Of a stretch of DNA of 62,494 nt, positions 123 through 59,755 are shown piece after piece. Each line of letters starts with the position of its first letter. Positions within the stretch are counted from its first letter, which is position 1. Made by a program: the position numbers and the translations under genes. The notes below the pieces were generated by a model. That model ran no database searches and was not told where the DNA came from. It saw only the letters and a list, made by a program, of their open reading frames with translations. Location: positions 1-62,494 of the forward strand of contig JAPLNA010000206.1 of assembly GCA_026693065.1 (NCBI GenBank), in the 5' to 3' direction. The DNA comes from Planctomycetota bacterium. GTDB taxonomy: Bacteria; Planctomycetota; Phycisphaerae; SM23-33.

Positions 123-126
123 GGCT

Positions 127-1725: not shown

Positions 1726-1727
1726 CC

Positions 1728-3137: not shown

Positions 3138-3693
3138 CGACGACCGCCGCCGGATCAAGAGCGAGAAACGGGCCTTCCGCGACTGGTGGGCCGGCGACCG
3201 CCGCGAGCCTTTCGTTCTCCCGCGCCGCGAGAACTACGGCGTCTGCGCCGTCATCCTGCCGGGCCCGCTGGCGAACCTCGCCCTGGGCCTGCGGTACGTC
3301 GCGATGCTCGTCATCGGCAGGATGCTGACCTCCTGGGTCCGCGTGAGGCTCTACCGGCTGATGGGCGTTCGGATCGGCCGGGGAGTTTACATCGCCCCCG
3401 GAGTATTCCTCGACGCGTTCTATCCGCGGCTGATCGAGCTTGAGGACGGCTGTTTCCTGGGCATCGGCTGCCGGCTGCTGGCGCACGAGTACACGACGGC
3501 GGCCTTCCGCGTCGGCCGCGTGCGAATCGGCAAGGGCTCGGTCATCGGGGGCTGGTCGATCGTTCGCAGCGGCGTGACGGTCGGTCGGGGCGTCACGACC
3601 GGGCTGGGCAGCGTGGTCGTCGCCGACGTGCCCGACGGGCTGACCGTCGGCGGCGTGCCCGCCAAACCCCTCAAGGGCAGGGAGTATGCCTGA
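3115..3693 (+). CDS. Left-handed beta-helix (hexapeptide repeat) acyl/acetyltransferase with N-terminal membrane segment
   Basis: Hexapeptide repeats IGRGVYIAPGVFL, IGKGSVIGGWSIVRSGVTVGRGVTTGLGSVV and VGGVPAKPL. Hydrophobic stretch VCAVILPGPLANLALGLRYVAMLVIG. The start is uncertain (3115 or 3127) and overlaps the upstream gene. Confidence 0.75.
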   Translation: MSDSMLSDDDRRRIKSEKRAFRDWWAGDRREPFVLPRRENYGVCAVILPGPLANLALGLRYVAMLVIGRMLTSWVRVRLYRLMGVRIGRGVYIAPGVFLDAFYPRLIELEDGCFLGIGCRLLAHEYTTAAFRVGRVRIGKGSVIGGWSIVRSGVTVGRGVTTGLGSVVVADVPDGLTVGGVPAKPLKGREYA

Positions 3694-4709
3694 TGGGCTT
3701 TCTGGCCAACTACGTGCGGAACCTCGCGAGCCTGGCGGCCGGGCGAACGCCCCGGCGGCCGCTCCTGTTCTCCTATTACCTCACCCACCGCTGTCCGCTG
3801 GCGTGCCGCTATTGCAGCGACGGGCAGGGGCGGCCCTTCAAGGAGGATCTCGTGGAGGAACTCTCCACCGGCCAGGCCCGCGAGCTGATCGACCTGCTGC
3901 GCCCCGACAGCGACACGCTGGACATCACCGGCGGCGAGCCGATGTGCCGGGGCGATCTGGAAGAACTGCTCTCGCACGCCCGGCGGGTGGGCTTCCGCAC
4001 GGTGCTGAACACCAAGGGCGCCGGCCTGCCGCAACGCCCGGACCTCATGCGTTTGTCCGACGTGCTGGTCCTGAGCGTCGACTCGCTGGATCGGGCCCGC
4101 CTGGCGGGGATCCTGGGCGGCCCCCCGCACGCCGCCCACGACGTGCTGGAGGCCCTGCACTGGGCCCTCGCCAACCGCGGGCGATACAAGAGCCAACTGG
4201 TCCTGTCCGCCGTCGCGATGGCCGACAACCTCGACGACGTCTCCGACGTCCTGCGGCTGGCCGTCAGTCATAAGCTGATGTTCCAGGTCTCCCCACACAT
4301 CGTCGGCACGGCGGTGCACCCGGGGCTGATCGGCAACGAGCGATTCGTCGCCCTGATGGACGAGGCCATCGCCGCCAAGGCCGCCGGCGCCGGCGTGCTG
4401 GGCGTGTTGCCCTATCTCCGCGGCCTGCGGGACGGGCGCGACTACACCTGCCACCCGCTGCTCATGCCCACCATCCGCCCCGACGGCGCGGTGAACCTGC
4501 CCTGCCTGGAACGCCCCCGCGAACGCGTGAGCGTCAAGGACGCCGGCGGCTATCGGCGGACACTCACGCGCGCGAGGCTGGCGCACGCCCGGACCTGCGA
4601 AGGGCGCGGGAATTGTCGTATCTTCTGCCACATGGCCCTGTCGTTGCTGCAGCGGCGGCCGCTGGCCGCCCTGCGGGAACTGGCGAGCTGGAGGACCACA
4701 CCATGCTGA
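3693..4709 (+). CDS. Radical SAM protein (~338 aa) with Cys-rich C-terminal auxiliary-cluster-like region
   Basis: CPLACRYC (Cx3Cx2C), GGEPM SAM motif, and C-terminal YTCHP...PDGAVNLPC...TCEGRGNCRIFC. TGATG overlap with the upstream stop. Confidence 0.85.
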   Translation: MGFLANYVRNLASLAAGRTPRRPLLFSYYLTHRCPLACRYCSDGQGRPFKEDLVEELSTGQARELIDLLRPDSDTLDITGGEPMCRGDLEELLSHARRVGFRTVLNTKGAGLPQRPDLMRLSDVLVLSVDSLDRARLAGILGGPPHAAHDVLEALHWALANRGRYKSQLVLSAVAMADNLDDVSDVLRLAVSHKLMFQVSPHIVGTAVHPGLIGNERFVALMDEAIAAKAAGAGVLGVLPYLRGLRDGRDYTCHPLLMPTIRPDGAVNLPCLERPRERVSVKDAGGYRRTLTRARLAHARTCEGRGNCRIFCHMALSLLQRRPLAALRELASWRTTPC

Positions 4710-5731
4710 CCGCGCTGCAAAAGGAACTGCACTACCAGTACCGGTGCCTGCGGCTCTCGCGGAACCTGCTGCTCAAGCGGATGCTCCACTGCAACCTGCA
4801 GGTGACCTATCGGTGCAACTTCGAGTGCCAGATCTGCGACTTCTGGAAGCCCGAGTATCAGAAGACGCACGAGTTGTCCCTCGACGACATCCGCCTGATC
4901 GGGGCCAGGCTCAACCGCCTGGGCACGCTGATCATCTCCCTGGCCGGCGGCGAGCCGCTGATCCGCGAGGACCTGCCCGACGTCATCGCCGTCCTGAACA
5001 AGGCCAATCATTTCCCCATTCTGATCACCAACGGCTGGTACGTGGACGACGCTCTGGCCAAGGCGATCCTGCGGGCGGGGTTGCAGGAGATCTCGGTGTC
5101 GGTGGACTACGCCGACCCGGCCCGGCACGACGCCCAGCGGGGGCGACAGGGGGCGTGGGACCGCGCGGTGAAGGCGCTGGAGCTGCTGCACAAGAACCGG
5201 CCCGACAAACGCAACCGCGTCCACATGATCAGCGTCCTGATGGACGACAACCTCGAGGACGTCGAGCCGCTGATCCTGCTGTCGCGCCAGATCGGCGTGA
5301 CGTACATGGTGAACCTCTACTCCTGGAACCGCGGGACGAAGAACCCCCGCCTGCCCGGCGCCCGCGTCACCGAACACCTGCTGGCCCTGAAACGCAAGTA
5401 CCCGGAGTTCATCACGCTCACCAGCTACCTCGAGCAGTTCGACAACGCCATCGCCGTCGGCGGGATCGGCGACTGCCAGACCGGGCGGCTGCTGATGAAC
5501 ATCAACAACCACGGCCAGGTAGCCCGCTGCACCGAGACGCTCGACGAACCGGTGGGCAATATCCTGACCGACGACGTCAAGCTCCTGCACCGGCGGCTGC
5601 TGGAGGTGCAGCGGACGAAGTCCTGCGCCCAGTGCTGGACGAGCTGCCGGGGCTTCGCCGAGTGCATGCACAAGCCGCCGCGGTGGCGCCAATTCCGCGA
5701 GTTCTTCATCTCCGTGAGGCCCCGCGCATGA
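4703..5731 (+). CDS. Radical SAM protein (~342 aa) with SPASM/twitch-like C-terminus
   Basis: VTYRCNFECQIC (Cx3Cx2C), AGGEPL, and C-terminal GDCQTG...HGQVARC...KSCAQCWTSCRGFAEC. The ATG at 4703 overlaps the upstream TGA (ATGCTGA). Confidence 0.85.
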   Translation: MLTALQKELHYQYRCLRLSRNLLLKRMLHCNLQVTYRCNFECQICDFWKPEYQKTHELSLDDIRLIGARLNRLGTLIISLAGGEPLIREDLPDVIAVLNKANHFPILITNGWYVDDALAKAILRAGLQEISVSVDYADPARHDAQRGRQGAWDRAVKALELLHKNRPDKRNRVHMISVLMDDNLEDVEPLILLSRQIGVTYMVNLYSWNRGTKNPRLPGARVTEHLLALKRKYPEFITLTSYLEQFDNAIAVGGIGDCQTGRLLMNINNHGQVARCTETLDEPVGNILTDDVKLLHRRLLEVQRTKSCAQCWTSCRGFAECMHKPPRWRQFREFFISVRPRA

Positions 5732-7053
5732 AGACCCTGGGCATGACGCATTCCGTCTGCGGCCGGTGCCGGCAGGTGATACCCGCCAAGGACGGGCGGG
5801 AAAAAACCTTCGTCCACGGCGACGTCGAGCAGTACCTCCGCGCCCAGCGGTTCGTCAAGCCCGCGTGGGCGCCGCTCGAATTCGCCGGCCAGGCCTCCAA
5901 GCCCTGCCCCGAAGGCTGCGGGATGTGCTCCCGGCACGAGCAGCACCTGTGCATGCCGATCGTCGAGATCACCGCCCGCTGCGACCTGGACTGCCCCGTC
6001 TGCCTGGCCTCCGCCGGGCGGGATTGGGACATGTCGCTCGATGAATTCCGCCGCCTGCTCGACGGGCTGATCCGCGCCGAGCGGCAGGTCGATATCCTTA
6101 CCCTCTCGGGCGGCGAGCCCCTGGTGCACCCGCGGATCCTCGAGTTCCTGGACGAACTGGCCCGCCGCCCCGCGATCGTCCGCGCGAGCGTCTCGACCAA
6201 CGGGCTGTCGCTGCTGCGGAATCCGCAACTCCTGCCCGCCCTGGCGGCCCGGAACGCCGTCGTGTCGCTTCAGTTCGACGGCTTCGACGACGGGGTGTAC
6301 CGAACGCTCCGCGGCCGCGACCTGCTGGCGCAGAAACTCCGCATCCTGGACCTTCTGGCCGAATCGGAGGTGACCACGTCGCTGACGGTGACGCTGGCCG
6401 GCGGGGTGAACGAGCCACAGCTCGGGCCGATCCTCGACTACGTCTTCTCGCACCGGCACGTGGTAAGTCTGATGATCCAGCCGGTGGCGTTCGCCGGGCG
6501 GGCCCAGGGCATGCCCGGACGCGAGGATCGCCTGACGATCCCCGACGTGATCGGCCTGCTGGGCGGCACGGGGAAGGTGGCGACGGAGGACTTCGCCCCC
6601 CTGCCCTGCAGCCATCCGCTGTGCTTCTCGCTGGCGTACTACCTCATGCTCGACGGGGGCGGCAGGGCCCCCGTCAACCGCCTGGTGCAGGCCGACGGGC
6701 TGATGGACTCGCTGAGCAACCGGACCGTCTTCGGGCTCGACGAGGAGGAGCACGAGCGGCTCAAGGACATGGTGTACGACTTATGGAGCGGCCCGGCGGG
6801 CACGGCCCCGGATGCCCAGGCCGTCCTGGACACGCTGCGAAACATCCTGGGCGAGATGAGCGGCGCGTGTTTCGACGCCCGTCAGGCCTTCACCGTCGCC
6901 CAGCGACGGATCAAGTCGGTTTTCATCCACGCCTTCCAGGACGCCGACACGTTCGACCTGGCCCGCGTCCGCCGCTGCTGCAACGCCTATCCGCAACCCG
7001 ACGGCCGACTCGTGCCCGCCTGCGTGCACAACGTGATGGGAGGCCGGCCATGA
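5728..7053 (+). CDS. Radical SAM protein, paralog of 1728-3137, with a truncated N-terminal Cys module
   Basis: CGRC, CPEGCGMC, radical SAM triad CDLDCPVC, GGEPLVHPRILEFLDEL (compare GGEPTLHPRILEILD in the paralog), and C-terminal FDLARVRRCCNAYPQPDGRLVPAC. ATGA overlap with the upstream stop. Confidence 0.85.
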   Translation: MKTLGMTHSVCGRCRQVIPAKDGREKTFVHGDVEQYLRAQRFVKPAWAPLEFAGQASKPCPEGCGMCSRHEQHLCMPIVEITARCDLDCPVCLASAGRDWDMSLDEFRRLLDGLIRAERQVDILTLSGGEPLVHPRILEFLDELARRPAIVRASVSTNGLSLLRNPQLLPALAARNAVVSLQFDGFDDGVYRTLRGRDLLAQKLRILDLLAESEVTTSLTVTLAGGVNEPQLGPILDYVFSHRHVVSLMIQPVAFAGRAQGMPGREDRLTIPDVIGLLGGTGKVATEDFAPLPCSHPLCFSLAYYLMLDGGGRAPVNRLVQADGLMDSLSNRTVFGLDEEEHERLKDMVYDLWSGPAGTAPDAQAVLDTLRNILGEMSGACFDARQAFTVAQRRIKSVFIHAFQDADTFDLARVRRCCNAYPQPDGRLVPACVHNVMGGRP

Positions 7054-7679
7054 AGGACTTCCTCGCCCGCGTCATCCGCCGCCATGGCTCGCTGATGGTC
7101 AACGTGTTCCTGGTGGTCGCGCTGGGGCGGTACGCGGCCGTGAAGGCGTGGGAGGCCTGGCAGGCGGGGGCGTTCGACTTCGTCGAGGCGGCCTTCGCCG
7201 TCAACAACGTCGTGATGCTGACGTTGATCCTCATCCGCCGCAGGCACGTCGCGATCGACCGCGGGGTCTTCCACCAGGCCGTCGCGCTCGTGGCGTTCTT
7301 CTCGGGCATCGCGTTCTTCAAGCACCCCACCCCCTGCCCACCCGCCCTGCCCGCGGGGTTCATGATCGCCGCGATGGCCCTGGGCGCCCTGTCGCTGCTG
7401 AACCTGGGGCGGAGCTTCGGCATCCTCATCGCCGTCCGCCAGGTCAAGACGCACGGCCTCTACCGCCTCGTCCGCCACCCGATGTACCTGACGGAAATCC
7501 TCTGGCGTATCGGCTACGTCGCGGGCAACCTGTACTGGCCCAACGTGCTGATCTTCCTGGCCTCGTCGGGCTGCTACGTCTACCGGGCGATCCTGGAAGA
7601 ACGATTCCTGGCCCGGGACCCGGAATACCGAGAATACATGCAGAGAGTCCGATACCGTTTTGTCCCAGGCGTTTTCTGA
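7050..7679 (+). CDS. Integral-membrane methyltransferase of the ICMT / phospholipid methyltransferase (PEMT) family
   Basis: Multiple hydrophobic helices plus GLYRLVRHPMYL...ILEERFL, the signature region of isoprenylcysteine carboxyl / PEMT-type methyltransferases. ATGA overlap with the upstream stop. Confidence 0.7.
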   Translation: MKDFLARVIRRHGSLMVNVFLVVALGRYAAVKAWEAWQAGAFDFVEAAFAVNNVVMLTLILIRRRHVAIDRGVFHQAVALVAFFSGIAFFKHPTPCPPALPAGFMIAAMALGALSLLNLGRSFGILIAVRQVKTHGLYRLVRHPMYLTEILWRIGYVAGNLYWPNVLIFLASSGCYVYRAILEERFLARDPEYREYMQRVRYRFVPGVF

Positions 7680-7690
7680 GGAACCTGCCC

Positions 7691-9169
7691 ATGCCCCTCT
7701 GGCCGCGCCGAACCTATCTGGATCACAACGCCTCGACGCCCCTGGCCCCCCAGGTCCGCCGGGCGATGGCGGCCTGCCTGAAGAATACGCACGGCAACCC
7801 CTCCTCCCTGCACATCGCCGGACGCTCCGCACGCGGGGCGGTCGAACGGGCCCGCCGTTCCGTGGCGGCCCTGCTGGGCTGCCAGAGCGAGGACCTCTAC
7901 TTCACCTCCGGCGGCACAGAGGCCAACAACGCGGTGATCAAGGGCGTCTGGTCGGCGGCGGGGGGCGGGCACGTCGTCACCACGCGGATCGAGCACGACT
8001 CGGTCCTGGGCGCCTGCGGGCAGGTGGAGAAACTGGGCGGGCGAGTGACCTACGTGCCCGCCGGCGCCGACGGGCGGGTGAACCCCCGCGCCCTCGCCGA
8101 CGCGATCCGCCCCGACACCGTGCTCGTGTCCGTCATGCACGCCAACAACGAGACCGGCGCGATCCAGCCCGTCGGGGAGATCGCCGCCCTCGCTCGCCAG
8201 GCCGGCGTCCCCTTCCACACCGACGCCGTGCAGACGTTCGGCAAGATTCCCACGCGGGTGGACGATCTGGGCTGCGAGTTCCTGACGCTGACGGCCCACA
8301 AGATCAACGGGCCCAAGGGGGCGGGCGCCTTGTACTGGCGGGGCAACGCCCGGTGGACGCCGCTGATCGCCGGCGGCGACCAGGAGCGGCGGATGCGAAC
8401 CGGGACCGAGGCCGTGCACCAGATCGTCGGGTTAGGCGCGGCCGCCGACCTGGCCGCGCGAGGGATGGACGGCCAACACCCTCGCCTGGCGGCGCTGCGA
8501 AAGATGATGATCGACGGCATCGGTCGTCTCTACCCCTCTGCCCGCATCAACGAGGCCCCCGAGGGCTGGCAGATGCCCGGCTCCGTCAATGCGACCTTTC
8601 CGGGCAAGAGCGGGCTGAGCATCCTGGCCGGGCTGGACTGCCACCAGGTGGCCGTGTCGATCGGATCGGCCTGCACCGCCGACCGGATCGAGCCCTCCCA
8701 CGTCCTGCTGGGCATGGGGCTCTCCGAGGCCGACGCCCTCTCCACCGTGCGGGTCAGCATGGGCGCGACGACGGTAGCCGCCGACGTGAAGTACTTCCTC
8801 TGGGCCCTCCAGCGGGTGCTTCGCGGCGATCCCGAGGGGCTGGCCTGGCTGCCGCCCGAGCACCTGACGGCCGAGCGGATCGCCGGGGCGTTCCTGATCG
8901 ACCTGCGCCTGCGATACGAGCGGATGATCGCCCCGGGGGTTCCGGGGGCGAAGCTCTGGTCGCACATCGGCATCGAGAAACGGTTCCGGGAGATTCCCCG
9001 CGACAGGGAGGTGATCCTGATGTGCACGACGGGGATTTTCTCCTTCGAGGCCGGCTATCGCCTCGCCGACGCGGGGCACCCCCGGGTGCGAGTGGTGTAT
9101 GGCGGGTACGAGGCCTGGAAGGCCCTCTATCCGGATCTGCTGGAACGCCTCCGGAGCGGCCCGGACTAA
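7691..9169 (+). CDS. Cysteine desulfurase (NifS/IscS class) fused to a C-terminal rhodanese-like domain
   Basis: YLDHNASTP, GNPSSLH, FTSGGTEANN, PLP-Lys context LTAHKINGPKG, persulfide Cys SIGSAC. The C-terminal ~120 aa carry VILMCTTGIFS (rhodanese-type Cys loop) and GGYEAW. Confidence 0.85.
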   Translation: MPLWPRRTYLDHNASTPLAPQVRRAMAACLKNTHGNPSSLHIAGRSARGAVERARRSVAALLGCQSEDLYFTSGGTEANNAVIKGVWSAAGGGHVVTTRIEHDSVLGACGQVEKLGGRVTYVPAGADGRVNPRALADAIRPDTVLVSVMHANNETGAIQPVGEIAALARQAGVPFHTDAVQTFGKIPTRVDDLGCEFLTLTAHKINGPKGAGALYWRGNARWTPLIAGGDQERRMRTGTEAVHQIVGLGAAADLAARGMDGQHPRLAALRKMMIDGIGRLYPSARINEAPEGWQMPGSVNATFPGKSGLSILAGLDCHQVAVSIGSACTADRIEPSHVLLGMGLSEADALSTVRVSMGATTVAADVKYFLWALQRVLRGDPEGLAWLPPEHLTAERIAGAFLIDLRLRYERMIAPGVPGAKLWSHIGIEKRFREIPRDREVILMCTTGIFSFEAGYRLADAGHPRVRVVYGGYEAWKALYPDLLERLRSGPD

Positions 9170-12156: not shown

Positions 12157-13197
12157 ATGCCGCTGAGCGAACGAGAGAATACGATCCGGAACGCCACATT
12201 CCGGGGGCATGAATGGATCCCGCAGTGCGTGGCCCTGAACGGGGCGTACTGGGGCGAGCATCGCGAGGCGCTGGAGGAGGTGTGCCTGAGGCACCCGGTG
12301 CTGTTTCCGGGGTTCCGCAAGGGGCAGGTCAATTTCGACGCCCACGTCCGAACGCCCGAGCAGAAGCGAGTCACGGATATCTGGGGGTGCCGCTGGGCGT
12401 ACGACATCGACGGCTTCGACGGGCAGGTGATCGCCCACCCGCTGGAGGACTGGTCGGCGATGGAGAGCGGGGCGTGGCAGCCGCCGCAGGCCCCCCCGTT
12501 CACCCAGGCCGACCGAGACCGGCTCGCCGCCCAGCGCGCCGCCGGAGAACTCACCTACGCCTGGACCGATCACGGGTTCGTCTTCATGCGGCTGTTCTAC
12601 CTGCGGGGGTTCGAGAACTTCCTGATGGACGTGGCCACGGAGGACCCGCGGCTGGACGCGTTGATCGAGAAGGTGATCGGCTACTGGGAGCAGACGCTGT
12701 TGCCGCGGATCGAAGCCGGCGTGGACGTGGTCAACACCGCCGACGACCTGGGCACGCAGACGGCGAGCATCCTCGGGCCCAAGTACTTCCGCCGGTATCT
12801 GCTGCCGGCGTATCAGCGAATCTTCCAGCCGGCGCGGCGGAAGGGCTCGCTGGTGAAAATGCACCACGACGGGTACATCATGGACGTGATGGACGAACTG
12901 ATCGAGAGCGGGGTGAACATCGTCAACCCGCAGGATCTGGTCAACGGGATCGACGCCCTGGCCGCCCACGTGAAGGGGCGGGCGTGCATCTGCCTGGACG
13001 TCGACCGCCAGAGCGTGCTGCCCTTCGGCTCCCCGGGCGACGTCCGCGACCTCATTCGCGAGGAAGTGATGAAGCTGGGCTCCCCGGCCGGGGGGTTGGA
13101 GATGATCATCGGCGTCTACCCCCCTACCCCGCTGGCGAATGTCGAGGCGATGATGTCGGCGATGGAGGAGTACAGGACGTATTGGGTGGGGAGGTGA
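12157..13197 (+). CDS. Uroporphyrinogen decarboxylase (URO-D)/MtaA-like family protein, paralog 1
   Basis: TIM-barrel URO-D-like pattern shared with 21321-22292 and 27718-28770 (DDLG.Q, H..G......dEL.e.GvN, C-terminal EA...A.EEY). The metal-ligand position reads HHDG instead of HSCG. Confidence 0.7.
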   Translation: MPLSERENTIRNATFRGHEWIPQCVALNGAYWGEHREALEEVCLRHPVLFPGFRKGQVNFDAHVRTPEQKRVTDIWGCRWAYDIDGFDGQVIAHPLEDWSAMESGAWQPPQAPPFTQADRDRLAAQRAAGELTYAWTDHGFVFMRLFYLRGFENFLMDVATEDPRLDALIEKVIGYWEQTLLPRIEAGVDVVNTADDLGTQTASILGPKYFRRYLLPAYQRIFQPARRKGSLVKMHHDGYIMDVMDELIESGVNIVNPQDLVNGIDALAAHVKGRACICLDVDRQSVLPFGSPGDVRDLIREEVMKLGSPAGGLEMIIGVYPPTPLANVEAMMSAMEEYRTYWVGR

Positions 13198-17029: not shown

Positions 17030-17197
17030 TGCGGTGGGGGGATTCTCCTGACGTGCGGGATTGGGGTTGAAAACCATATTCGGATTGTGCAGAATGGGCG
17101 CTCCGCGTCTGGTGTCCGGGAAGGCGTATCGCCGCGCCGGGACGGACGCGGGTGGTTCGAACCGGTTTCCCCGCATTCCCATAGAAGGACGATCATC

Positions 17198-20743
<3,546 letters not shown>

Positions 20744-21264: not shown

Positions 21265-21320
21265 CAAGTCCATCTAACCCCGCCTTGCGGCGTCTTGTGT
21301 CGCGGCCGCCGGAGTCTACA

Positions 21321-22292
21321 ATGCTCACCATGATCCCCAAAGAGAACTATCTGCGCGTGCTGCGGCACGACCACCCCGAGTGGGTGCCGCTGGTGCGGGA
21401 GTGCGACGACTGGATCGGCCCGCCGGTGGTCGAACGGCCCGACCGGGCGGGGCTGGACGCCTTCGGCGTGCGATGGAACTACGAGGCCTCGGCCGAGGGG
21501 GGCACGTTCCCGGCCCAGGGGGGTCACACCATCACCGACCTGGCCCAGTGGCGCCGGCAGATCACGATCCCCGACCTGGCCCGCTTCGATTGGAGCGAGC
21601 CGGCCCGGGCCGCCGCCGCCGTCGACCGCCCGACGCGGGTCATCGTCGGGTTCGTCGAGATGGGGCTCTTCGAGCGGTCGTACCTCCTGCTGGGGATGGA
21701 CGAGGCCCTGGTGGCCTACGTCACCCACCCGGAGCTGATGTACGACCTGCTGGGCGAGCTGGCCGACTACAAGATTGCCCTGATCCGGCGGCTGCACGAG
21801 GCCATCCGGATGGACATCCTCTGGTACGGGGATGACTGGGGCAACCAGCGGAGCCTGTTCCTTCCGCCGCCGGTGTGGCGCCGGGTGGTCCGCCCGCACA
21901 CCCAGCGGATCTACGACTGCGCCAAGAGCCTGGGCATCATGATCGACCAGCACTCCTGCGGCAAGGTGGACGAGGTCGTCGGCGACATGGTCGAGATGGG
22001 CGCGACGATGTGGAACCCCTGCCAGCCCTGCAACGACCTGGCGGGGCTGAAGAAGAAATACGGCGGGCGGATCGCCTTCTCGGGCGGCATCGACAGCCAG
22101 TTCGTCCTCGCCCGCCGGGGTGTGACGGCCGACGAGGTCCGCGCCCACGTCCGCCTTCGGATCGACCAGATGGCCGCCGGCGGCGGGTACGTCGCCACCC
22201 CCAGCCACGGCGTGCCCTACGACAAGGCCATCTTCGACGCGATGAACGACGAGATCCGCACCTACGGGCGGGCGTACTACGCGAAGAAGTAA
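21321..22292 (+). CDS. URO-D/MtaA-like family protein, paralog 2
   Basis: MLTMIPKENYLRVLRHDHPEWVP...DDWGNQ...HSCGKVDEVVGDMVEMG...GGID. Same family pattern as paralogs 1 and 3. The start could be 21321 or 21330. Confidence 0.7.
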   Translation: MLTMIPKENYLRVLRHDHPEWVPLVRECDDWIGPPVVERPDRAGLDAFGVRWNYEASAEGGTFPAQGGHTITDLAQWRRQITIPDLARFDWSEPARAAAAVDRPTRVIVGFVEMGLFERSYLLLGMDEALVAYVTHPELMYDLLGELADYKIALIRRLHEAIRMDILWYGDDWGNQRSLFLPPPVWRRVVRPHTQRIYDCAKSLGIMIDQHSCGKVDEVVGDMVEMGATMWNPCQPCNDLAGLKKKYGGRIAFSGGIDSQFVLARRGVTADEVRAHVRLRIDQMAAGGGYVATPSHGVPYDKAIFDAMNDEIRTYGRAYYAKK

Positions 22293-22328
22293 ACTCCCCC
22301 GCTCGGGGGATCACCGGCGGTCGCGGCC

Positions 22329-22509
22329 AAGAGACAGGGATTCAAGGATTCCTGGATTGGGGGATTGAATCGCAGACAGAAGAACGAGTGAAAGAAGAGC
22401 CCGGGCCCTTGTTGTCGCGGGAGGCCACACCAGGGCCGTTCGGCCCTCTTCCTCCGTATCATTCTTTTTTGAATCCCCTAATCCAGGAATCCTTGAATCC
22501 CTGTCTCTT
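22329..22509. repeat. 181-nt intergenic element bounded by ~39-nt near-perfect inverted repeats
   Basis: AAGAGACAGGGATTCAAGGATTCCTGGATTGGGGGATTG (22329-22367) against the reverse complement of 22471-22509 (AAGAGACAGGGATTCAAGGATTCCTGGATTAGGGGATTC). Two mismatches by eye. The arms reiterate GGATT. Confidence 0.8.
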
Positions 22510-22629
22510 TGTCGCTTGCACCCGTGCGGCCTCCGTCCTGGCCGACACGGAAACCAGAGACCTTGCGGTTCTTGACTCCCCGGCGGCAATGCCTACCATG
22601 GCAGTTCCGCGACCGTGAAAGGAACCCCC

Positions 22630-24417
22630 ATGGCGATCCCGCGTAACGAATACCCGCGTCCGCAGTTCATACGGAAAGACTGGCTGTGCCTCAATGGCCC
22701 GTGGCAGTTCGAGATCGACGCCGGCGACACCGGGGCCGAGCGCGGGCTCCTCGATCGCGAACTCTCCGGGCGGATCACCGTGCCCTTCTGCCCCGAGAGC
22801 AGACTCTCGGGCGTCGAGTGCGTGGACTTCATGAACGCCGTCTGGTATCGCCGCACGGTCACGGTCCCCAAGGCCTGGGCCGGGCGGAAGGTGCTGCTGC
22901 ACTTCCAGGCCGTCGACTACGAGGCCACCGTCTGGGTGAACGGCCGCCGGGTGGGCGCCCATCGCGGGGGCTGGTGCGGGTTCACCTGCGACCTGGGCGG
23001 AGTGGTCGCCGCCGGCGAGAAGGCGACGATCGTCGTCCGCGCCCGCGACCCGAAGGGGCCCGGCAAGCCGGGAGGAAAGCAGACGCCGACGGCCTACCAC
23101 AGCAGCGGCTGCCTCTACACCCGAACGACGGGCATCTGGCAGACCGTGTGGATGGAACCGGTGAGCGAGGTCCATCTGAAGCGTCCGCGGATCACGCCCG
23201 ACCTGGCCGGCGGACGGTTCCGGCTCGTCCAGCCGATCACCAACAGCCGCCCGGGGACGAAACTCCGCGTGACGCTCAAGGACAACAAGGGCGTCGTCTG
23301 CCGCGCCCTCGCCGACGCCGACGCCGACTTCACGCCGACCCTCGACCTGCCCATCCCCAAGGCCCGCCGGCGGCTCTGGGGCCCGGAAGACCCGTTCCTC
23401 TACGACGTCGACATCGAACTGCTCGACGCCAAGGGCAAGACCATCGACCGGGCCTCCAGCTACGCCGGACTGCGAAGCGTCACCATCGACGGCCAGGCCG
23501 TCCGCCTCAACGGGCGGAGCGTCTTCCAGCGGCTGGTGCTGGACCAGGGGTATTACCCCGACGGCATCCTGACGGCCGCCAGCGACGCGGCGTTGCGCAA
23601 GGACATCGAGCTTTCGCTGGCGGCGGGGTTCAACGGCGCGAGACTGCACCAGAAGGTGTTCGAGGAACGCTTCCTGTACCACGCCGACCGGCTGGGGTAC
23701 CTCGTCTGGGGCGAGCTGGGCGACTGGGGGCTCGACCGGGACCAGCCCAAGGCCACCTACATCACCCAGTGGCTCGAGGTGGTCGCCCGCGACTACAACC
23801 ACCCGGCGATCGTGGGCTGGTGCCCGCTGAACGAGACGGCCCAGCCGATCCCCGACGGCGTCGAGGGGCTCGACGACCTGACGCACGGGCTGGTGCTGGC
23901 GACGAAGGCGATGGACCAGACGCGTCCGGTGCTGGACGCCTCGGGCTACAGCCATCGCGAGTGGAACCTGGACGTGTACGACAGCCACGACTACGACCAG
24001 AACCCCGCGACGTTCGCCGCTCGCCACGCGGGCCTGGCCGCGGGCGACCCGTTCGTCAACCCGGACAAGGAGCACGCCCCGTGGTCGCTGCCGTACGCGG
24101 GGCAACCGTACTTCGTCAGCGAGTTCGGCGGCACGTGGTGGCAGCCGGGCATGGCGGCCCACCGCGACAGCCACGCCCACGACGGCTCGTGGGGGTACGG
24201 CCAGGCCCCCCGCACCCTCGCGGAGTTCTACGCCCGCTTCCAGGGCCTGTGCGACGCCCTCCTGGACAATCCGCACATGTTCGGTTACTGCTACACCCAA
24301 CTGACCGACGTCTTCCAGGAACAGAACGGCATCTTCCTGTTCAATCGCGAGCGGAAGTTCGACCTCCGCAAACTCCACACCATCCAACGCCGCCCCGCGG
24401 CGGTGGAGAAGCGGTGA
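22630..24417 (+). CDS. Glycoside hydrolase family 2 (beta-galactosidase/glucuronidase/mannosidase-like)
   Basis: YPRPQF, WYRR...VLLHFQAVDYEATVWVNG..VG.HRGG, acid/base context GWCPLNE and nucleophile context YFVSEFGG. The start could be 22615 or 22630. Confidence 0.8.
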   Translation: MAIPRNEYPRPQFIRKDWLCLNGPWQFEIDAGDTGAERGLLDRELSGRITVPFCPESRLSGVECVDFMNAVWYRRTVTVPKAWAGRKVLLHFQAVDYEATVWVNGRRVGAHRGGWCGFTCDLGGVVAAGEKATIVVRARDPKGPGKPGGKQTPTAYHSSGCLYTRTTGIWQTVWMEPVSEVHLKRPRITPDLAGGRFRLVQPITNSRPGTKLRVTLKDNKGVVCRALADADADFTPTLDLPIPKARRRLWGPEDPFLYDVDIELLDAKGKTIDRASSYAGLRSVTIDGQAVRLNGRSVFQRLVLDQGYYPDGILTAASDAALRKDIELSLAAGFNGARLHQKVFEERFLYHADRLGYLVWGELGDWGLDRDQPKATYITQWLEVVARDYNHPAIVGWCPLNETAQPIPDGVEGLDDLTHGLVLATKAMDQTRPVLDASGYSHREWNLDVYDSHDYDQNPATFAARHAGLAAGDPFVNPDKEHAPWSLPYAGQPYFVSEFGGTWWQPGMAAHRDSHAHDGSWGYGQAPRTLAEFYARFQGLCDALLDNPHMFGYCYTQLTDVFQEQNGIFLFNRERKFDLRKLHTIQRRPAAVEKR

Positions 24418-24497: not shown

Positions 24498-26642
24498 ATG
24501 ACCACCGACCGAATCGCCCGAATGCGTGACCGCGTAACGACCACCCCCGCCGTCTGGGACGACGGCGAGTGGACGCTCCGCGAGCAATCCAACGCCGCCA
24601 CCGTCGGCCTGTCGCCCATCCTGCGTGAAGCCCACGCGATGGCTCACTCCTTCGGCCACCGCGCCCTGCGAATCCAGGACGGCGAACTGATCGTCGGCAC
24701 GAACACCCGCACGCCGCCCGTGCCGGTCCCCCCAACTCCCCCCGCGGCCCAGACGCCGCCCCCGCCCCCGCCGCCGTGGCAGAAATACCTCGACCAGCGC
24801 GTGCTGTCGTTCGCGGGCAACCACACGACGCTCGACTACGAGACAATCCTGGCCGAGGGTTTCAGCGGCCTGATCGCCCGGATCGACCGCCGCCTGGCGT
24901 CCCTGCCCGCCGACGCCGCCGAGGCGCGGGAGTTTCTCCAGGCCCTGCGGATCGTCGCCGAAGGGGCCATCGACTTCTCCAACCGTCACGCCGACCTGGC
25001 CGCGCAGTTGGCCGCTCAGGCCGACGACGCGGCCCGGCGCGAGGAACTGCTCGCCATCGCCGCCAACTGCCGGGCCGTGCCCGCCGGACCGGCGAAGACA
25101 TTCTGGCAGGCCTGCCAGAGCCTCTGGTTCAGCTTCTTCCTCATGCCCGACTCCCCCGGACGGGTGGACCAGTACCTGGGCGGGTATTACGAGGCCGACC
25201 TGCGCGAGGGTCGCATCACGAAGGGGCAGGCGCTGGAGTTGATCGAGTGCCTGTGGTTGAAGTATTTCGAGTCGGGCGGGCCCACCAACCCCATCGGCGC
25301 CACCCACCACCTGACGCTGGGCGGCGTGAAGGGCGACGGGTCCGACGCGTCCAACGCGGTCACCTGGCTGTGCCTGGAGGCCACCGAGCGGTTGAAACTC
25401 TTCCGTCCACAGGTCTCGCTGCGTTGGCACCGTGGCACGGAACCGGCCCTGCTGGCCCGGGCCGTCCAGGCCCTGCGAGGCAGATGCGGGCACCCGAGCT
25501 TCTGCAGCGACGAGCAGATCATCCCGGCCCTGACGAACGTCGGGGTGGCCCTGGCAGACGCGCGGAACTACTCGCTCTCGGGCTGCAACGAGGTGATCAT
25601 CTCGGGTATGGCCCAGATGGGCTCGGTGGAAGGGTTCGTGAACATGCCCAAGGCCCTCGAGATGGCCCTGGGCCTGGCGCCCGAGCTGGGCCCGGGGGCC
25701 GACCTGACGCGGATCGGCTCCTTCGAGCAGTTCCAGACCGCCGTCGCCGACGCCCTGCGAACGATCGTCGGCGTGATTCACGAGACGTCGTACGCGGTCG
25801 ACGCCGATCGCGCCCGCTGGCCCCACCTGATGGCCTCGCTGGTCGTCCGCGACTGCATCGAGAACGCCCGCGGCTACACCCAGGGCGGGGCACGGTACAA
25901 CTTCTGCAACTGGAACATCGTCGGCATCGCCAACCTCGCCGACTCGCTGGCCGTCGTCGACCGGCTGGTCTTCCGCGAGAAACGGCTGGCCCTGCCCGCC
26001 CTGGCGGCGGTCCTCCGGACCAACTGGGACGGACAGGAAGTCCTCCGCCGGCGAATCCTGGGCGACCTGCCCCACTACGGCAACGACGTCGGCGAAGTAG
26101 ACTCCCTGGCCGCCGGGGTGGTCGAGCTGACCGACTCGCTCATGAAGCAGGCGGTCCCCTTCCGCGGCGGGCAGTACATCCTGGGCACGCTGGCGGGGGC
26201 AGAGAACATCCACATGTTCTTCGGCGCCCTGACCGGGGCGACCCCCGACGGGCGCCGTGCGGGGGAGCCGCTGGCCGACAGCCTCGGCGCCGCCCAGGGC
26301 CGCGACCGACACGGGCCCACCGCCATGCTCAACTCCGTCGCCAAGATCCCCCACCGCCTGCTCCCGACGGCCACCACGATCAACGTCAAGCTCGACCCGC
26401 GTCTGCTGGACTCCCAGGCCGGGCTCGACCGGATCGCCGCCCTCATCCAGGGCCACTTCGTCTCGGGCGGTCAGCAGGTGCAGTTGACTCTCGTCACGCG
26501 TCAGATGCTCGAAGAGGCCCAGGCCGACCCGGCCAGCCACGGCAACGTCGTCGTCCGCGTCGCCGGCTACAGCGCGCCCTTCGTCATGCTCGACCCGGCG
26601 CTGCAGGCGGAGATCATCTCACGGACGGAGCACGGGCTGTAG
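24498..26642 (+). CDS. Glycyl radical enzyme, PFL2/dehydratase-like class
   Basis: C-terminal glycyl radical motif VVRVAGYSAPFVMLD, thiyl Cys loop LSGCNEVIISG with Glu two residues after the Cys, and an N-terminus DRIARMRDRV...IQDGELIVG typical of PFL2-type GREs. Product is 714 aa. Confidence 0.9.
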   Translation: MTTDRIARMRDRVTTTPAVWDDGEWTLREQSNAATVGLSPILREAHAMAHSFGHRALRIQDGELIVGTNTRTPPVPVPPTPPAAQTPPPPPPPWQKYLDQRVLSFAGNHTTLDYETILAEGFSGLIARIDRRLASLPADAAEAREFLQALRIVAEGAIDFSNRHADLAAQLAAQADDAARREELLAIAANCRAVPAGPAKTFWQACQSLWFSFFLMPDSPGRVDQYLGGYYEADLREGRITKGQALELIECLWLKYFESGGPTNPIGATHHLTLGGVKGDGSDASNAVTWLCLEATERLKLFRPQVSLRWHRGTEPALLARAVQALRGRCGHPSFCSDEQIIPALTNVGVALADARNYSLSGCNEVIISGMAQMGSVEGFVNMPKALEMALGLAPELGPGADLTRIGSFEQFQTAVADALRTIVGVIHETSYAVDADRARWPHLMASLVVRDCIENARGYTQGGARYNFCNWNIVGIANLADSLAVVDRLVFREKRLALPALAAVLRTNWDGQEVLRRRILGDLPHYGNDVGEVDSLAAGVVELTDSLMKQAVPFRGGQYILGTLAGAENIHMFFGALTGATPDGRRAGEPLADSLGAAQGRDRHGPTAMLNSVAKIPHRLLPTATTINVKLDPRLLDSQAGLDRIAALIQGHFVSGGQQVQLTLVTRQMLEEAQADPASHGNVVVRVAGYSAPFVMLDPALQAEIISRTEHGL

Positions 26643-26697: not shown

Positions 26698-27255
26698 TCA
26701 CCTTTTCTGCTTCTTGAATTGTCCCGAATACCCCTTCGCGGGGGTGCCGAAGGTCTGTTCGAATATCAACTGGCAGATTGGCATGTCGGGAGTCAGACGG
26801 ATACTCACCGGACCCAGGTTACACATTTCAAGTTGGATTGGGCCCTCAAATCCGGCGTGTATCGTGGGGGCGGTTACATGAACCGCCAAGCCCAAACGAG
26901 CTAGGGAACTCTTGCCTTCCACACGCGCTGCAATTCGCGAGTGGTTAGGCAATACGAGAAGCTCCTTTGTCCACCCCAGAACGAAGGCGTCGGGTGCCAA
27001 GACGTAACCCTTTGACTTGTCCACGACCACTTTCTTGGTGTACTTGGCCCTGAATTTCTCGTAGTTGAATTCCGCTCCCGGCGTGATGACTTCGCCCTTT
27101 GTCTTCTCGACTTGATCGAAGTCCCATACGCGAATCACATTCGATAGACACAAATCCACGGAGGTGGAACTAAACCGAACCGGATCCGGCACAGGTTGAA
27201 TCACAATCTGCCCGTGCTCCAGGGATGTCAGGATTTCTCGGTCAGTCAGGATCAT
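26698..27255 (-). CDS. dcd: dCTP deaminase (dUTPase-superfamily, trimeric type)
   Basis: MILTDREILTSLEHGQIVIQP...SSTSVDLCL...GLAVHVTAPTIHAGFEGPIQLEMCNLGPVSIRLTPDMPICQLIF is the Dcd consensus. Lies inside a visibly lower-G+C segment. Confidence 0.9.
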   Translation of the reverse strand: MILTDREILTSLEHGQIVIQPVPDPVRFSSTSVDLCLSNVIRVWDFDQVEKTKGEVITPGAEFNYEKFRAKYTKKVVVDKSKGYVLAPDAFVLGWTKELLVLPNHSRIAARVEGKSSLARLGLAVHVTAPTIHAGFEGPIQLEMCNLGPVSIRLTPDMPICQLIFEQTFGTPAKGYSGQFKKQKR

Positions 27256-27463: not shown

Positions 27464-27717
27464 GGAGCCCCGTGTAATCTTCGCCCTTATTCTACACATA
27501 CGGTTTCCTTTCCTTACGGATATCAGATACCGCTTCCGGCTGAGCGTGTCAAAGGAAAACCTCGCCTTTCTGAACCATACTATTCCGCTGATCACGTGGG
27601 AAGAGGAGATTCGTTCCCTTTCCTCCGGCAAGCTGGGGGAACCCCTTGCTTTTCCCGCCGAAAAATGTGACCCTGTCGGACCACGGAGTTTGTCCCCCAG
27701 GTATAGGAGAGACGTAC

Positions 27718-28770
27718 ATGGCCGAAAAGAAGATCTACCAGCGGCTGGCGAGGGCGGAGGTTATCAAGGCCGTCGAGCGGAAGAGCCCCAGCCGGATTCC
27801 GCTGTCGTTCGCCAAGTGGTGGGGCGAGGGCCTGCACGAGCAGTACGGCCAGCGGCTGAGCGAGTTCGACCGCTTCCCCGAAGACACCGCCTGGGTGGGC
27901 GTGTCCCCGCTGGACATCGGGCGGATGAACCTCTCCTGGAAGGTCGAGGGCGGCAAGGCCTACGACAGCAATCTCGTCATCAGCGACTGGAGCCAACTGG
28001 ACGAGTTCATCGACAAGCTGCCCCTGACGGCGGCCGAGGCGCAGAACGAGGCCTATGAGACCATGGCCGTTCACGCCGCGAACCTGCGAAAGCAGGACGT
28101 GTACATTCATTTCGGGTGGTGGAATCTGTTCTTCGAGCGCCCCTGGGGGTTGCGGGGGATGGAGAACCTCATGCTGGACTACCACCTGTACCCCGAGGAG
28201 ATCCACCGGCTGCACGACGCGATGGCGGACGTGTACATCGGTCACATTCGCCGGGCGGCGAAGGAGTTCGCCCCCGACGGCTTCTGGACCAGCGACGACC
28301 TGGGGCATCAGACCGGGCTGATGATGGGCCCGGAGATCTTCCGCGACCTGATCAAGCCCTACTACGTGAAGGTCGGCAAGGCCCTGAGGGAATGCCGCAT
28401 GCACTGGTGGCTGCACAGTTGCGGCGACAACACCGAGATCATGGGCGACCTGGCCGACGCGGGCGTGAACGTCTTCCATCCCGTGCAGAAGCACACGATG
28501 GACGAGCTGAAGATGGCCCGGCAGTACGGCGACCGGATGACCTTCCTGGCCGGCTTCGACGTGCAGCACACGCTGCAGGAGAAAACCCCCGAGGGCGTCC
28601 GGGAGGAAGTGCGGTTTCTGATCGACACGTTCGACCGCCCCGAGGGCGGGTTGTGCATCGCCGCCGGCAACGGCATCGTGCGCGGGACGCCCTTTGAGAA
28701 CATCGAGGCGTTCCTGGAGGAGGCGTTGGAGTACGGCACGGCCCACCGGCAGGGGTTCAGGGCGGGTTAA
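27718..28770 (+). CDS. URO-D/MtaA-like family protein, paralog 3
   Basis: AGGAGA RBS. DDLGHQTG, HSCGDNTEIMGDLADAGVNVFHPVQ and CIAAGNGI, a URO-D/MtaA-like pattern that includes His-x-Cys and a downstream Cys. Confidence 0.75.
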   Translation: MAEKKIYQRLARAEVIKAVERKSPSRIPLSFAKWWGEGLHEQYGQRLSEFDRFPEDTAWVGVSPLDIGRMNLSWKVEGGKAYDSNLVISDWSQLDEFIDKLPLTAAEAQNEAYETMAVHAANLRKQDVYIHFGWWNLFFERPWGLRGMENLMLDYHLYPEEIHRLHDAMADVYIGHIRRAAKEFAPDGFWTSDDLGHQTGLMMGPEIFRDLIKPYYVKVGKALRECRMHWWLHSCGDNTEIMGDLADAGVNVFHPVQKHTMDELKMARQYGDRMTFLAGFDVQHTLQEKTPEGVREEVRFLIDTFDRPEGGLCIAAGNGIVRGTPFENIEAFLEEALEYGTAHRQGFRAG

Positions 28771-45385: not shown

Positions 45386-47071
45386 CTACTTGGCGTCCAC
45401 CACGACACGGAAGCCGCAGAAAGCGGCCCGGGAGGGAGGCGTGCCCCAACTGCGACAGGCGGACCGGCAGTACTGTGGATAAAACCCCCAACACCCCCCG
45501 CGCAGAACACGACGCGTCCCCGATGCCACCCCCTGCGGGTCGCGGGTTCCCGCGTTCGCATACGACTCCTCGTACCAGTCGCTGCACCACTCCCACACGT
45601 TCCCGTGCATGTCGTACAGCCCCCAGGCGTTGGGCTTCTTCTGCCCGACGGGGTGAGTCGTGCCCCCGCTGTTCGTGTTGCACCAGGCGTACTCGCCCAG
45701 GGCCGCGTCCGTCTCGCCGAATCCGAACCGCGTCCTGCCCCCCGCACGGCAGGCGTATTCCCACTGCGCCTCCGTCGGCAACCGCGCCGCCTTGCCCGTC
45801 TTGGCCGACAGCTTCTTGCAGAACTCCACCGCGTCGTCCCAACTGACCTGTTCGGCCGGGTTCTTCGCCCCCTTGAAGGCGCTGGGGTTGGCGCCCATGA
45901 CGGCCTCGTACTGCTCCTGCGTCACCTCGTATACCCCCAGGCAGAACGCCTTGCTGATCGTCACCGCCCGCGGCGGGCCTTCACTGACGCCCCGGTCCTT
46001 CTCGCTCTCCGGGCTGCCCATCGTGAACTTCCCCGCCGGAATCACCACCAGCTTCAGCACCACCCCCTTGCCCAGGTCCAACCGGACCCACCGGGCGAAC
46101 TCCAGCCCCGCCTTCTCTCCCGCCTTGGCGACCTTCTCCAGCAACATCGTCCCCTTCAGCCGGGCGACATCCTGGTCCGTGTGAAGCTCGAGAAACCTCT
46201 CGCAACACGCGTTGCTCTTGCCCAGAAGCACGCCCTTACCGGCCGGCGAGGCCTTCTCGGCGACGTCGGCATACCACGTCGCCAACTCCAGACACGCCCC
46301 CTCGGCCAGGTCCGACACGGGCTTGGCCGATAGCGGAACGTAGGTCCGAACCTTCTCGTCCAGATCGTCGGTCACGAGCTTGACGGCCTCGGCGGGATTG
46401 TCGAACTCCCCCAGGTACGCCAGAATCAGATTCGTCCGGGCGGCGACGCTCTTGGGGTTCTCCTTCAGCTTGTTCTTGAGGCCCGTCAGTCTCGCTTCGG
46501 CCTCCACGCCGGCCGTGGTCTGCTTGATCCTGTCGGTAATCTCTCCGACCCGCCCCGAACCCGCACCGGTGGCGACGTCCAGGGCCTTGCGGTAGAGCGA
46601 TATCGCCTCCATGGGCTTCTTGAGGCCCGCTCGTTCATCTCCCCCGGCCACCAACAGGCCTATCAGTTCCTCCCCCAGCGTCCGGCGCTCCGCCCCGGCG
46701 CTCTTGGCATAGCGAACCTGGCTGGCCTCGATCAGTTTCTCTTGCGCCTGCCCCTTCTTCTCCGGCGCCACCTGGGCCAGGAACTTCATCGCGTCGATGG
46801 CCGTCCCATACCCGGCGGAGTCCTTCATGCCGAACTCGTAGGCCTTCTCGCAGAGAATCGCCTGGAGGCCCTTGTCCTTGTCCAGGGCCTTGGCGGCCTG
46901 GAGCACCTTGCCCGCGAACTCCGCCGACGCCCTGGGCCCCTTGCCAACGACGGCCTTCTCCTCCTCGCCAAACAGCGCCTGATAGTCAGCCTCCGCGCCA
47001 GCCATCGCCCAGGAGGCCAGGCAAAGAACCACCCCTGCCCCCAGCATCCAGCCGGCAGTTGATCTAGCCAC
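45386..47071 (-). CDS. Secreted protein with a C-terminal formylglycine-generating-enzyme (SUMF1/EgtB/PvdO) domain
   Basis: IPAGKFTMGSP...VSWDDAVEFCKKLS...RLPTEAQWEYACRAG...NAWGLYDMHGNVWEWC...RVLRGGCW. N-terminal signal peptide and a helical region. GTG start with a GAGAGGA RBS. Confidence 0.85.
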   Translation of the reverse strand: MARSTAGWMLGAGVVLCLASWAMAGAEADYQALFGEEEKAVVGKGPRASAEFAGKVLQAAKALDKDKGLQAILCEKAYEFGMKDSAGYGTAIDAMKFLAQVAPEKKGQAQEKLIEASQVRYAKSAGAERRTLGEELIGLLVAGGDERAGLKKPMEAISLYRKALDVATGAGSGRVGEITDRIKQTTAGVEAEARLTGLKNKLKENPKSVAARTNLILAYLGEFDNPAEAVKLVTDDLDEKVRTYVPLSAKPVSDLAEGACLELATWYADVAEKASPAGKGVLLGKSNACCERFLELHTDQDVARLKGTMLLEKVAKAGEKAGLEFARWVRLDLGKGVVLKLVVIPAGKFTMGSPESEKDRGVSEGPPRAVTISKAFCLGVYEVTQEQYEAVMGANPSAFKGAKNPAEQVSWDDAVEFCKKLSAKTGKAARLPTEAQWEYACRAGGRTRFGFGETDAALGEYAWCNTNSGGTTHPVGQKKPNAWGLYDMHGNVWEWCSDWYEESYANAGTRDPQGVASGTRRVLRGGCWGFYPQYCRSACRSWGTPPSRAAFCGFRVVVDAK

Positions 47072-59557: not shown

Positions 59558-59564
59558 AAGAAGA

Positions 59565-59665: not shown

Positions 59666-59755
59666 CCTATTTCACCCGCGCCGCGTTCTCAAAGAGAAAT
59701 CTGGATCTCACGTTTCTTTCCCCCGATATCACTTGTTGACTAAAGGAACCAAGAA

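Follow-up and report, generated by a model that had tools for sequence, protein, structure and literature searches.

A compact, activase-unlinked clade of glycyl radical enzymes in Planctomycetota and allied phyla, with a probable carbohydrate-derived substrate

We analysed a 62,494-nucleotide contig (JAPLNA010000206.1 of assembly GCA_026693065.1; hereafter the window) from a Planctomycetota bacterium of the class Phycisphaerae, which carries a gene for a glycyl radical enzyme (GRE) at 24498..26642 on the forward strand. Genes of the window were called from the GC content at third codon positions (GC3) and open reading frames (ORFs), and were annotated with Pfam and NCBIfam. The GRE gene has 714 codons, no internal stop, and a start codon consistent with the N-termini of its homologues in an alignment of 28 sequences. 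Its product includes a pyruvate formate-lyase (PFL)-like domain (residues 106-571, Pfam E 1.7e-124) and a Gly_radical domain (PF01228, residues 595-696, E 2.9e-22). As described in a first-pass annotation made from the sequence alone, the gene of a GH2-family glycosidase of about 600 aa (22615..24417, +, with Pfam GH2 domains) precedes the GRE gene on the same strand with a gap of 80 nt, and dcd lies downstream in convergent orientation on the opposite one (26698-27255). The GH2 gene is preceded by a URO-D-like (MtaA/CmuA-like) gene (21285..22292, +; Pfam PF01208, weak NCBIfam matches to MtaA/CmuA), so that three genes follow each other on one strand. Ahead of the GH2 gene there is a sigma-70-like site, and nothing resembling a terminator lies in the gap between GH2 and the GRE gene, its probable operon partner. 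Our results suggest that the GRE represents a compact form of a known enzyme family whose genes are not linked to an activase, and that its substrate is probably carbohydrate-derived.

The catalytic motifs are intact. The glycyl radical motif RVAGYSA spans residues 687-693 (26556..26576, +) and includes Gly690, and the Cys loop GCNE spans residues 362-365 (25581..25592, +), with Cys363 and Glu365 forming a CXE motif. Both had been read from the sequence in the first pass, with the proviso that they might prove degenerate upon alignment, which they did not. In the AlphaFold2 (AF2) model, Gly690 and Cys363 are both placed at the tips of beta-hairpins, the former between strands 685-688 and 691-694, the latter between strands 358-360 and 366-368. 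In pairwise alignments to 1r8w and 5i2a, His109 (codon at 24822..24824, +), part of an invariant AGNH(T) motif, matches His164 of glycerol dehydratase (GD), the general acid of that enzyme (PMC13450708). Gly690, Tyr691, Cys363, Glu365, Asn108 and His109 are invariant in the 28-sequence alignment, which covers homologues 52-89% identical to the GRE, and the Gly and CXE motifs were retained in all 39 distinct sequences of its clade scanned from their loci. Comparisons with relatives gave dN/dS values of 0.18-0.35, indicative of purifying selection. The maintenance of the radical relay and of the acid/base pair under such selection favours an active GRE. We also considered the invariant Glu378 as the equivalent of GD Asp447, and dropped this assignment, as the HMMER alignment sets the two residues one column apart.

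The predicted fold is that of the family. The AF2 model, built from 28 homologues (mean pLDDT 83.6, pTM 0.85), shows the ten-stranded beta/alpha barrel and was matched by Foldseek to more than 45 GRE chains with a probability of 1.00 and TMq of 0.80-0.89. The closest structures are those of propanediol dehydratase (PD) and GD (5i2g/1r8w, TMq 0.88-0.89 at 30-32% identity), other GRE classes being slightly lower. The nearest solved relatives by sequence are also PD (5i2a, 381 bits) and GD (1r8w, 360 bits), after which scores form a near-continuum through CutC, PflD, YbiW and HypD. The protein lies below all NCBIfam equivalog cutoffs, including those of HypD (377 bits against 1100), CutC (319 against 1050), HpfG/HpsG (about 350 against 1000) and PRK09983 (369 against 1109), and the best subfamily model, PFL2-3, gave 491 bits for a cutoff of 678. 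Taken together, sequence and model identify a genuine PFL-like GRE that is placed outside every characterised specificity clade, even though the first pass had allowed that it might fall within one. Among the characterised enzymes covered by a review of the family there is none like it, and whole clades are left unassigned there (PMC13450708); we found no characterised member of the compact clade in the literature, this 2026 review included.

At JGI and NCBI some homologues are named "formate C-acetyltransferase" or "pyruvate formate lyase family protein", which would make the protein a pyruvate formate-lyase. The probability of this assignment is negligible. The PFL1 model (TIGR01255) gives 90 bits where 994 are required, in a match confined to the C-terminal 200 residues, the Cys loop reads GCNE where PflB has an adjacent Cys-Cys pair (C418/C419), and PflB is the outgroup of our tree.

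How widespread are these proteins? A word-indexed search of 5.8 billion proteins yielded no fewer than 120 clusters, formed at 90% identity, that score above 800 bits and are 52-89% identical to the GRE. Nearly all the clusters listed have lengths of 715-735 aa (median about 724), and those with names come from metagenome-assembled genomes (MAGs) of Latescibacterota, Poribacteria and Gemmatimonadota. Among GTDB species genomes we found 38 clade loci, all of them in MAGs, from Poribacteria, Planctomycetota/Phycisphaerae, Latescibacterota, Armatimonadota, Victivallales/Lentisphaeria and Gemmatimonadetes. When 1.84 billion representatives at 50% identity were searched exhaustively with HMMER, 1971 GRE representatives were obtained at E <= 1e-30; at this level the clade comes down to a handful of representatives (714, 650 and 562 bits) standing above a continuum that starts below about 450 bits. 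Hence, the remark that a protein of 714 aa is shorter than most family members is true, but shortness characterises the whole clade and also many other GRE lineages of 700-740 aa in this continuum.

A neighbour-joining tree recovers the clade as a monophyletic group to which activase-linked canonical GREs, YbiW, PflD and PflB do not belong. Its signature at the glycyl motif is RVAGYSAPF, and its Cys loop is CHE in 32 of the 39 distinct sequences, CNE in 5, CSE in 1 and CQE in 1, against CVE in 60, CIE in 5 and no motif in 1 of 66 canonical GREs. The GRE had been called an orphan. It is indeed unlinked from an activase, but this state is the rule across the clade, and sequence comparison shows one member of a large and widespread group rather than a singular orphan. 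Two loci encode a second, different short GRE of 741 aa about 5 kb from the clade member (L005 16995-19220 and L006 10904-13129). This protein has a Cys loop without Glu (GCTQ) and the Gly motif RIGGFST, and its gene lies beside a sulfatase and a GH38-like gene, with no activase within 10 kb.

The alignment of the clade with canonical GREs, YbiW, PflD and PflB revealed three clade-wide deletions. The first removes about 40 residues immediately past the conserved ELIVG. The second removes 8 residues from the loop that in GD reads ESNGHSIS and, according to the pairwise alignment, carries His281 and Ser282. The third removes 9 residues ahead of HHLTLGG, at the position of GD Tyr339. Deletions two and three fall in substrate-pocket loops used by GD, so that of the pocket residues compared the clade keeps the equivalent of His164 and lacks the loops of the others. 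The first deletion bears on a poly-proline insertion that had been reported after ELIVG. Canonical GREs have about 40 more residues at this place, not fewer, and the segment present here (T72-W94, TPPVPVPPTPPAAQTPPPPPPPW, 24711..24779, +) has the same length in all members of the 28-sequence alignment. It is rich in Pro and Ala solely in this gene and its relatives at 88-89% identity, is predicted to be disordered (pLDDT 50-65, no secondary structure) and includes a CCG/CGC-type low-complexity run of period 3/9 in the DNA (24739-24776). Alignment, disorder and low complexity exclude a functional insert or repeat, and alignment and model identify the stretch as a remnant linker that spans the deletion.

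These deletions are informative on the substrate. The loss of two pocket loops, together with a polar residue in the middle of the CXE motif, suggests that the substrate is probably not glycerol or propanediol, but something bulkier. A larger sugar, a sugar acid or a sugar derivative, set free by the glycan-degrading enzymes encoded around it, is more likely; the gene neighbourhoods point to a sugar, a sugar acid or a modified sugar. One could instead regard the protein as a divergent diol dehydratase acting on glycerol or on 1,2-propanediol, the latter derived from fucose or rhamnose freed by neighbouring glycosidases. PD (5i2a/5i2g, 9rco) and GD (1r8w) rank first in both the sequence and the structure comparisons, the CXE motif and the His164 equivalent are kept, the window encodes a GH29 alpha-L-fucosidase (59756-61021), and zinc-dependent alcohol dehydrogenases (Zn-ADH) are neighbours in 6 loci. 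Yet, 30-32% identity makes PD and GD about as distant as CutC, HypD, PflD and YbiW, no equivalog score is reached (491 bits for 678 at best), and the clade branches apart in the tree. The deleted His281/Ser282 and Tyr339 loops and the polar CXE residue also disagree with a diol dehydratase, as does a context without the microcompartment shell genes and adjoining activase of typical PD loci. We thus regard this alternative as improbable.

GRE genes are typically found next to the gene of their activating enzyme, and the first pass had noted that none was present among the flanking genes. We built an activase hidden Markov model (HMM) from E. coli PflA, PflC and YbiY and ran it on six-frame ORFs of the window and of 45 related loci. 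There was no GRE activase even across the whole 62.5-kb window, be it by this HMM, by a scan for CxxxCxxC or by Pfam and NCBIfam. Four radical SAM genes at 1623-7053 were considered as candidates and rejected: their products are Tes/TrsS-like or SPASM/MoaA-like, with no match to the activase HMM and a best PFLA score of 23 bits for a cutoff of 232. Among the related loci the HMM matched only a Clostridium control (L046) and a single clade locus (L033). Hence, one of the 39 clade loci, which total 0.68 Mb and of which 21 have at least 5 kb on each side of the gene, has an activase within 10 kb. As a control, a canonical GRE lies directly downstream of the activase in 73 of 80 activase-centred loci, the other 7 being short or truncated contigs.

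The exception provides a clue on how the clade may be activated. In L033 (9947-14419) an acetyl-CoA synthetase, the GRE, a GHL10-like protein and a ferredoxin-domain activase are encoded in this order, with a convergent Zn-ADH gene downstream and no further GRE nearby. Annotated homologues of this activase, 60-79% identical to it, occur in Poribacteria, Latescibacterota, Roseibacillus and elsewhere. On a Poribacteria contig the L033-type activase stands between two other short GREs, and on a Latescibacterota contig it immediately precedes a GRE of 717 aa; these short GREs are 33-38% identical to the clade. Since a matching activase lineage occurs in the same phyla beside other short GREs, activation in trans is likely: the genomes would encode several short GRE paralogues and few activases, and the clade would be served from elsewhere in the genome. 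On three Poribacteria contigs (L213/L214/L215, 2061-19826) two further short GRE lineages share one activase, in the order URO-D twice, PhyH, GRE (762 aa), URO-D, activase, then GRE (742-748 aa, GCTE / RIGGYSEYF), URO-D, B12-binding radical SAM and URO-D.

The window also encodes a single-chain pyruvate:ferredoxin oxidoreductase (PFOR; 1218 aa, 17087-20743, +) 4 kb upstream of the GRE. PFOR is a sign of anaerobic, low-potential electron metabolism and could supply the reductant for an activase. These observations matter for the possibility that the protein is a relic, either decaying or keeping its PFL-like barrel for a structural or non-radical role. An activase missing from the window and from 38 of 39 clade loci would fit such a fate, as would the distribution of the clade in phyla usually considered aerobic. 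However, Gly690, Cys363, Glu365 and His109 are invariant at 52-89% identity and over six phyla, all 39 clade sequences conserve the Gly and CXE motifs, and the low dN/dS shows that the protein sequence is constrained. Furthermore, one clade locus does carry an activase whose lineage is present in the same phyla, and PFOR and the several radical SAM genes of the window point to anaerobic capability. A relic is very unlikely under these circumstances.

We then used ORF clustering and Pfam to compare the genes around the 39 non-redundant clade loci. URO-D-like proteins are the most frequent neighbours (14 loci), followed by RpiB/LacAB proteins (7, usually directly adjacent), Zn-ADH (6), sulfatases (5), enolase superfamily proteins (4) and GH2 (4). 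Single loci also include heparinase II/III, CBM9, FGE-sulfatase, GH38-like, GH51, GH116, UxuA-like and GFO_IDH_MocA proteins. The proximity of the GH2 gene had been taken to suggest a substrate derived from glycan breakdown. The wider context agrees, in that clade neighbours are those of glycan and sugar catabolism, but GH2 itself is not a conserved partner across the clade. The adjacency is limited to the closest relatives, recurring in L007 (GRE 69% identical), L008 (89%, where the whole URO-D/GH2/GRE order is repeated) and L041, whereas the Planctomycetaceae contigs L210 and L211 have GH2 homologues of 72-75% identity and no GRE beside them. With 4 of 39 loci and these two absences, GH2 adjacency is weak evidence on the substrate. 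The GH2 protein best matches 7xyr in the PDB, annotated as a beta-glucuronidase (462 bits), and then a beta-D-galactofuranosidase (287 bits). It belongs to a very large and unusually conserved family (at least 8000 scored candidates, all with E <= 1e-20), and at 65-89% identity it is found across Planctomycetota, Armatimonadota and Anaerolineae, a conservation across phyla that extends beyond that of the GRE itself. Its nearest named homologues come from Planctomycetota/Planctomycetaceae, in line with the planctomycete-like organism proposed in the first pass. A comparison of ArgRS gave, among the matches listed, mostly Gammaproteobacteria at 53-63% and did not inform the placement, for which we rely on the GH2 homologues. 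PFOR is also encoded near the GH2 homologue of L211.

URO-D-like genes deserve particular attention. The window has two more of them, a paralogue 1 kb past the GRE with the antisense dcd in between (27646..28770, +; Pfam PF01208 E 1.8e-19, also supported by NCBIfam and clustering) and a third at 12157-13197 (+). A URO-D-like HMM matched 29 ORFs across the full clade set, spread over 17 loci, and a single one in 1.19 Mb of canonical GRE loci. This enrichment is taxonomically confounded because the control loci come from other phyla. It also had four matches in the Poribacteria GRE/activase cluster. URO-D-like proteins were seen at L013, L020, L025, L028, L030 and L213 as well, and a sequence search of the PDB gave no solved relative of the URO-D-like neighbour. 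The GRE and the URO-D-like protein might form a two-component system with a different chemistry, such as decarboxylation or C-C, C-N or C-S cleavage, acting on a substrate that could be other than a plain sugar, for example a methylated or carboxylated glycan constituent. This would explain why the URO-D-like protein is the commonest neighbour and often directly adjacent, and why the pairing recurs with two other short GRE lineages in Poribacteria (GRE-URO-D-activase-GRE-URO-D); the remodelled pocket and the polar CXE residue also argue against a chemistry like that of GD and PD. Nevertheless, the enrichment may simply reflect an expansion of URO-D-like genes in these genomes, 25 of the 39 loci lack such a gene within 10 kb, the proteins match known families weakly and have no structural relative by sequence, and we saw no corrinoid protein among the products of the window. 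The conserved Glu/His pair also fits elimination best. On balance we find a two-component system unlikely.

Metagenomic data place the gene in freshwater and lake water, where runs contained 94-99% of its sampled words. In lake metatranscriptomes, two contigs align cleanly to internal parts of the gene (25513-25663 and 26242-26464) and are weak evidence of its transcription. One DNA contig of low depth (2x) from run X1 joins position 22144 to 23617 through 37 unrelated bases and lacks the 1472 bases in which the URO-D-like gene ends and most of GH2 lies; a structural variant of minor abundance or an error of assembly may account for it.

Our preferred reading, to which we give a probability of roughly 60%, is that the protein is a functional GRE of a distinct, compact and uncharacterised PFL2/dehydratase-like clade, activated in trans, that catalyses either a 1,2-elimination or a related isomerisation with C-O cleavage on a carbohydrate-derived substrate. 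It builds directly on the integrity of the gene, its motifs, predicted fold and clade membership, the lack of linkage to an activase, the glycan-related neighbours and the activase lineage found in the same phyla; from these we infer that a radical forms, that activation occurs in trans, and which type of reaction and class of substrate are involved. The pro-S hydrogen of Gly690 would be taken by a radical-SAM activase with a ferredoxin domain, the gene of which would lie elsewhere in the genome and which probably also serves other short GREs. The resulting glycyl radical would generate a thiyl radical at Cys363, which, judging from the invariant residues and the predicted fold, would take a hydrogen atom from a substrate that is hydroxylated and derived from carbohydrate. 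Glu365 and His109 could then act as base and acid in the elimination of water or in the isomerisation, and the carbonyl product would pass to neighbouring sugar-catabolic enzymes. A CXE motif whose Glu binds the substrate is common to all characterised eliminases (PMC13450708).

Several observations weigh against this reading. The first-pass annotation regarded the Glu of the CXE motif as characteristic of eliminating GREs, and the motif is present, but it is shared by the isomerases YbiW (GCIE) and PflD (GCVE). HPAD, a decarboxylase, also carries CXE, and the motifs thus leave the reaction type unfixed. The analogy with diol dehydratases is incomplete, because the substrate-binding His281/Ser282 and Tyr339 of GD belong to deleted loops. 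A GTDB scan for CWWCHNPE showed, among the matches listed, no activase in the same genome as a clade GRE; these matches were Anaerolineae and Clostridia activases from no MAG in common with our clade list, which makes the scan uninformative. Neighbours differ from locus to locus and no single pathway emerges from them. The RNA support is thin, consisting of two short contigs in which DNA carry-over is possible. Finally, Poribacteria, Gemmatimonadota and Armatimonadota are usually held to be aerobic, which is awkward for an oxygen-sensitive radical enzyme.

The rest of the window shows other metabolic features. A set of forward-strand genes at 106-9169 encodes an acyl carrier protein (106-537), a short-chain dehydrogenase/reductase (SDR) ketoreductase (530-1264), a FabA-like dehydratase (1264-1725), the four radical SAM proteins, a hexapeptide transferase (3115-3693) and a cysteine desulfurase-rhodanese fusion (7148-9169). 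Among the radical SAM proteins, those encoded at 1623-3137 and about 5734-7053 are closest to the tetraether lipid synthase Tes and to TrsS, and the cluster looks like a pathway of unusual lipid or fatty-acyl modification. Further genes related to glycans, at 45386-47071 (-) and 58154-61980 (+), encode an FGE-sulfatase-domain protein, a SASA-type carbohydrate esterase, the GH29 enzyme and a xylose-isomerase-like TIM barrel protein, a content typical of Planctomycetota. A prepilin-type N-methyl protein is encoded at 57082-57984 (-).

GREs carry out chemically hard anaerobic reactions, and each newly assigned clade has so far given a new metabolic route, as for choline, hydroxyproline, isethionate and anhydro-sugars. 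The present clade is abundant in uncultured glycan degraders of lakes, sediments, sponges and groundwater. If its substrate is derived from glycans, there would be a radical, oxygen-sensitive step in the turnover of polysaccharides by phyla mostly modelled as aerobic hydrolytic degraders. We tentatively suggest, as a possibility with less than even odds, that the compact GREs, the URO-D-like proteins and other short GREs are parts of an unrecognised radical pathway for the breakdown of a glycan-derived sugar, sugar acid or modified sugar, which would operate at low oxygen with one shared activase for several dispersed GRE paralogues in each genome. Its hosts may include Planctomycetota, Poribacteria, Latescibacterota and allies. 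Such a pathway would define a new class of GRE substrates and a design in which one activase serves many unlinked GREs within polysaccharide-utilisation loci. Because the separation from activases is systematic, neighbourhood methods keyed on GRE/activase pairs will miss the clade.

How does this clade compare with known systems? Activation in trans has precedents in E. coli, where TdcE and GrcA/YfiD are activated by PflA. As in our model for the clade, the gene of the GRE is not beside that of its activase. However, TdcE and GrcA are a PFL-type enzyme and cofactor of one well-studied genome, whereas here 38 of 39 loci are unlinked and the partner activase is putative. The PFL2 protein of Archaeoglobus fulgidus (2F3O), the function of which is debated and the substrate unassigned, is of the PFL2 type like our GRE (315 bits, TMq 0.86), but is archaeal, has a canonical length of 776 aa and lacks the deletions of the clade.

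GD of Clostridium butyricum (1R8W/1R9D) and PD of Roseburia inulinivorans (5I2A/5I2G) have the same PFL-like barrel, and share with our GRE the RVAGYSA motif, the catalytic Cys, the Glu of CXE and the His at the position of GD His164. They differ in being about 75-130 residues longer, in having the approximately 40 residues that are absent here after ELIVG, and in keeping the ESNGHSIS loop (His281/Ser282) and the loop bearing Tyr339. The middle residue of CXE is Val in GD and PD and His or Asn in this clade. Unlike them, our GRE has neither a neighbouring activase nor microcompartment genes. YbiW and PflD, sugar-phosphate C-O lyases/isomerases that act on 1,5-anhydroglucitol-6-P and 1,5-anhydromannitol-6-P (8ID7, 8YJO, 8ID0), are at about 29-30% identity on a separate branch of the tree, and in E. 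coli ybiW and pflD adjoin the activases ybiY and pflC and phosphotransferase system (PTS) or aldolase genes, a context that is not found here. Yet, they share the CXE motif and much of the structure (TMq 0.85-0.88), and they provide a precedent for GREs that act directly on carbohydrate-derived substrates.

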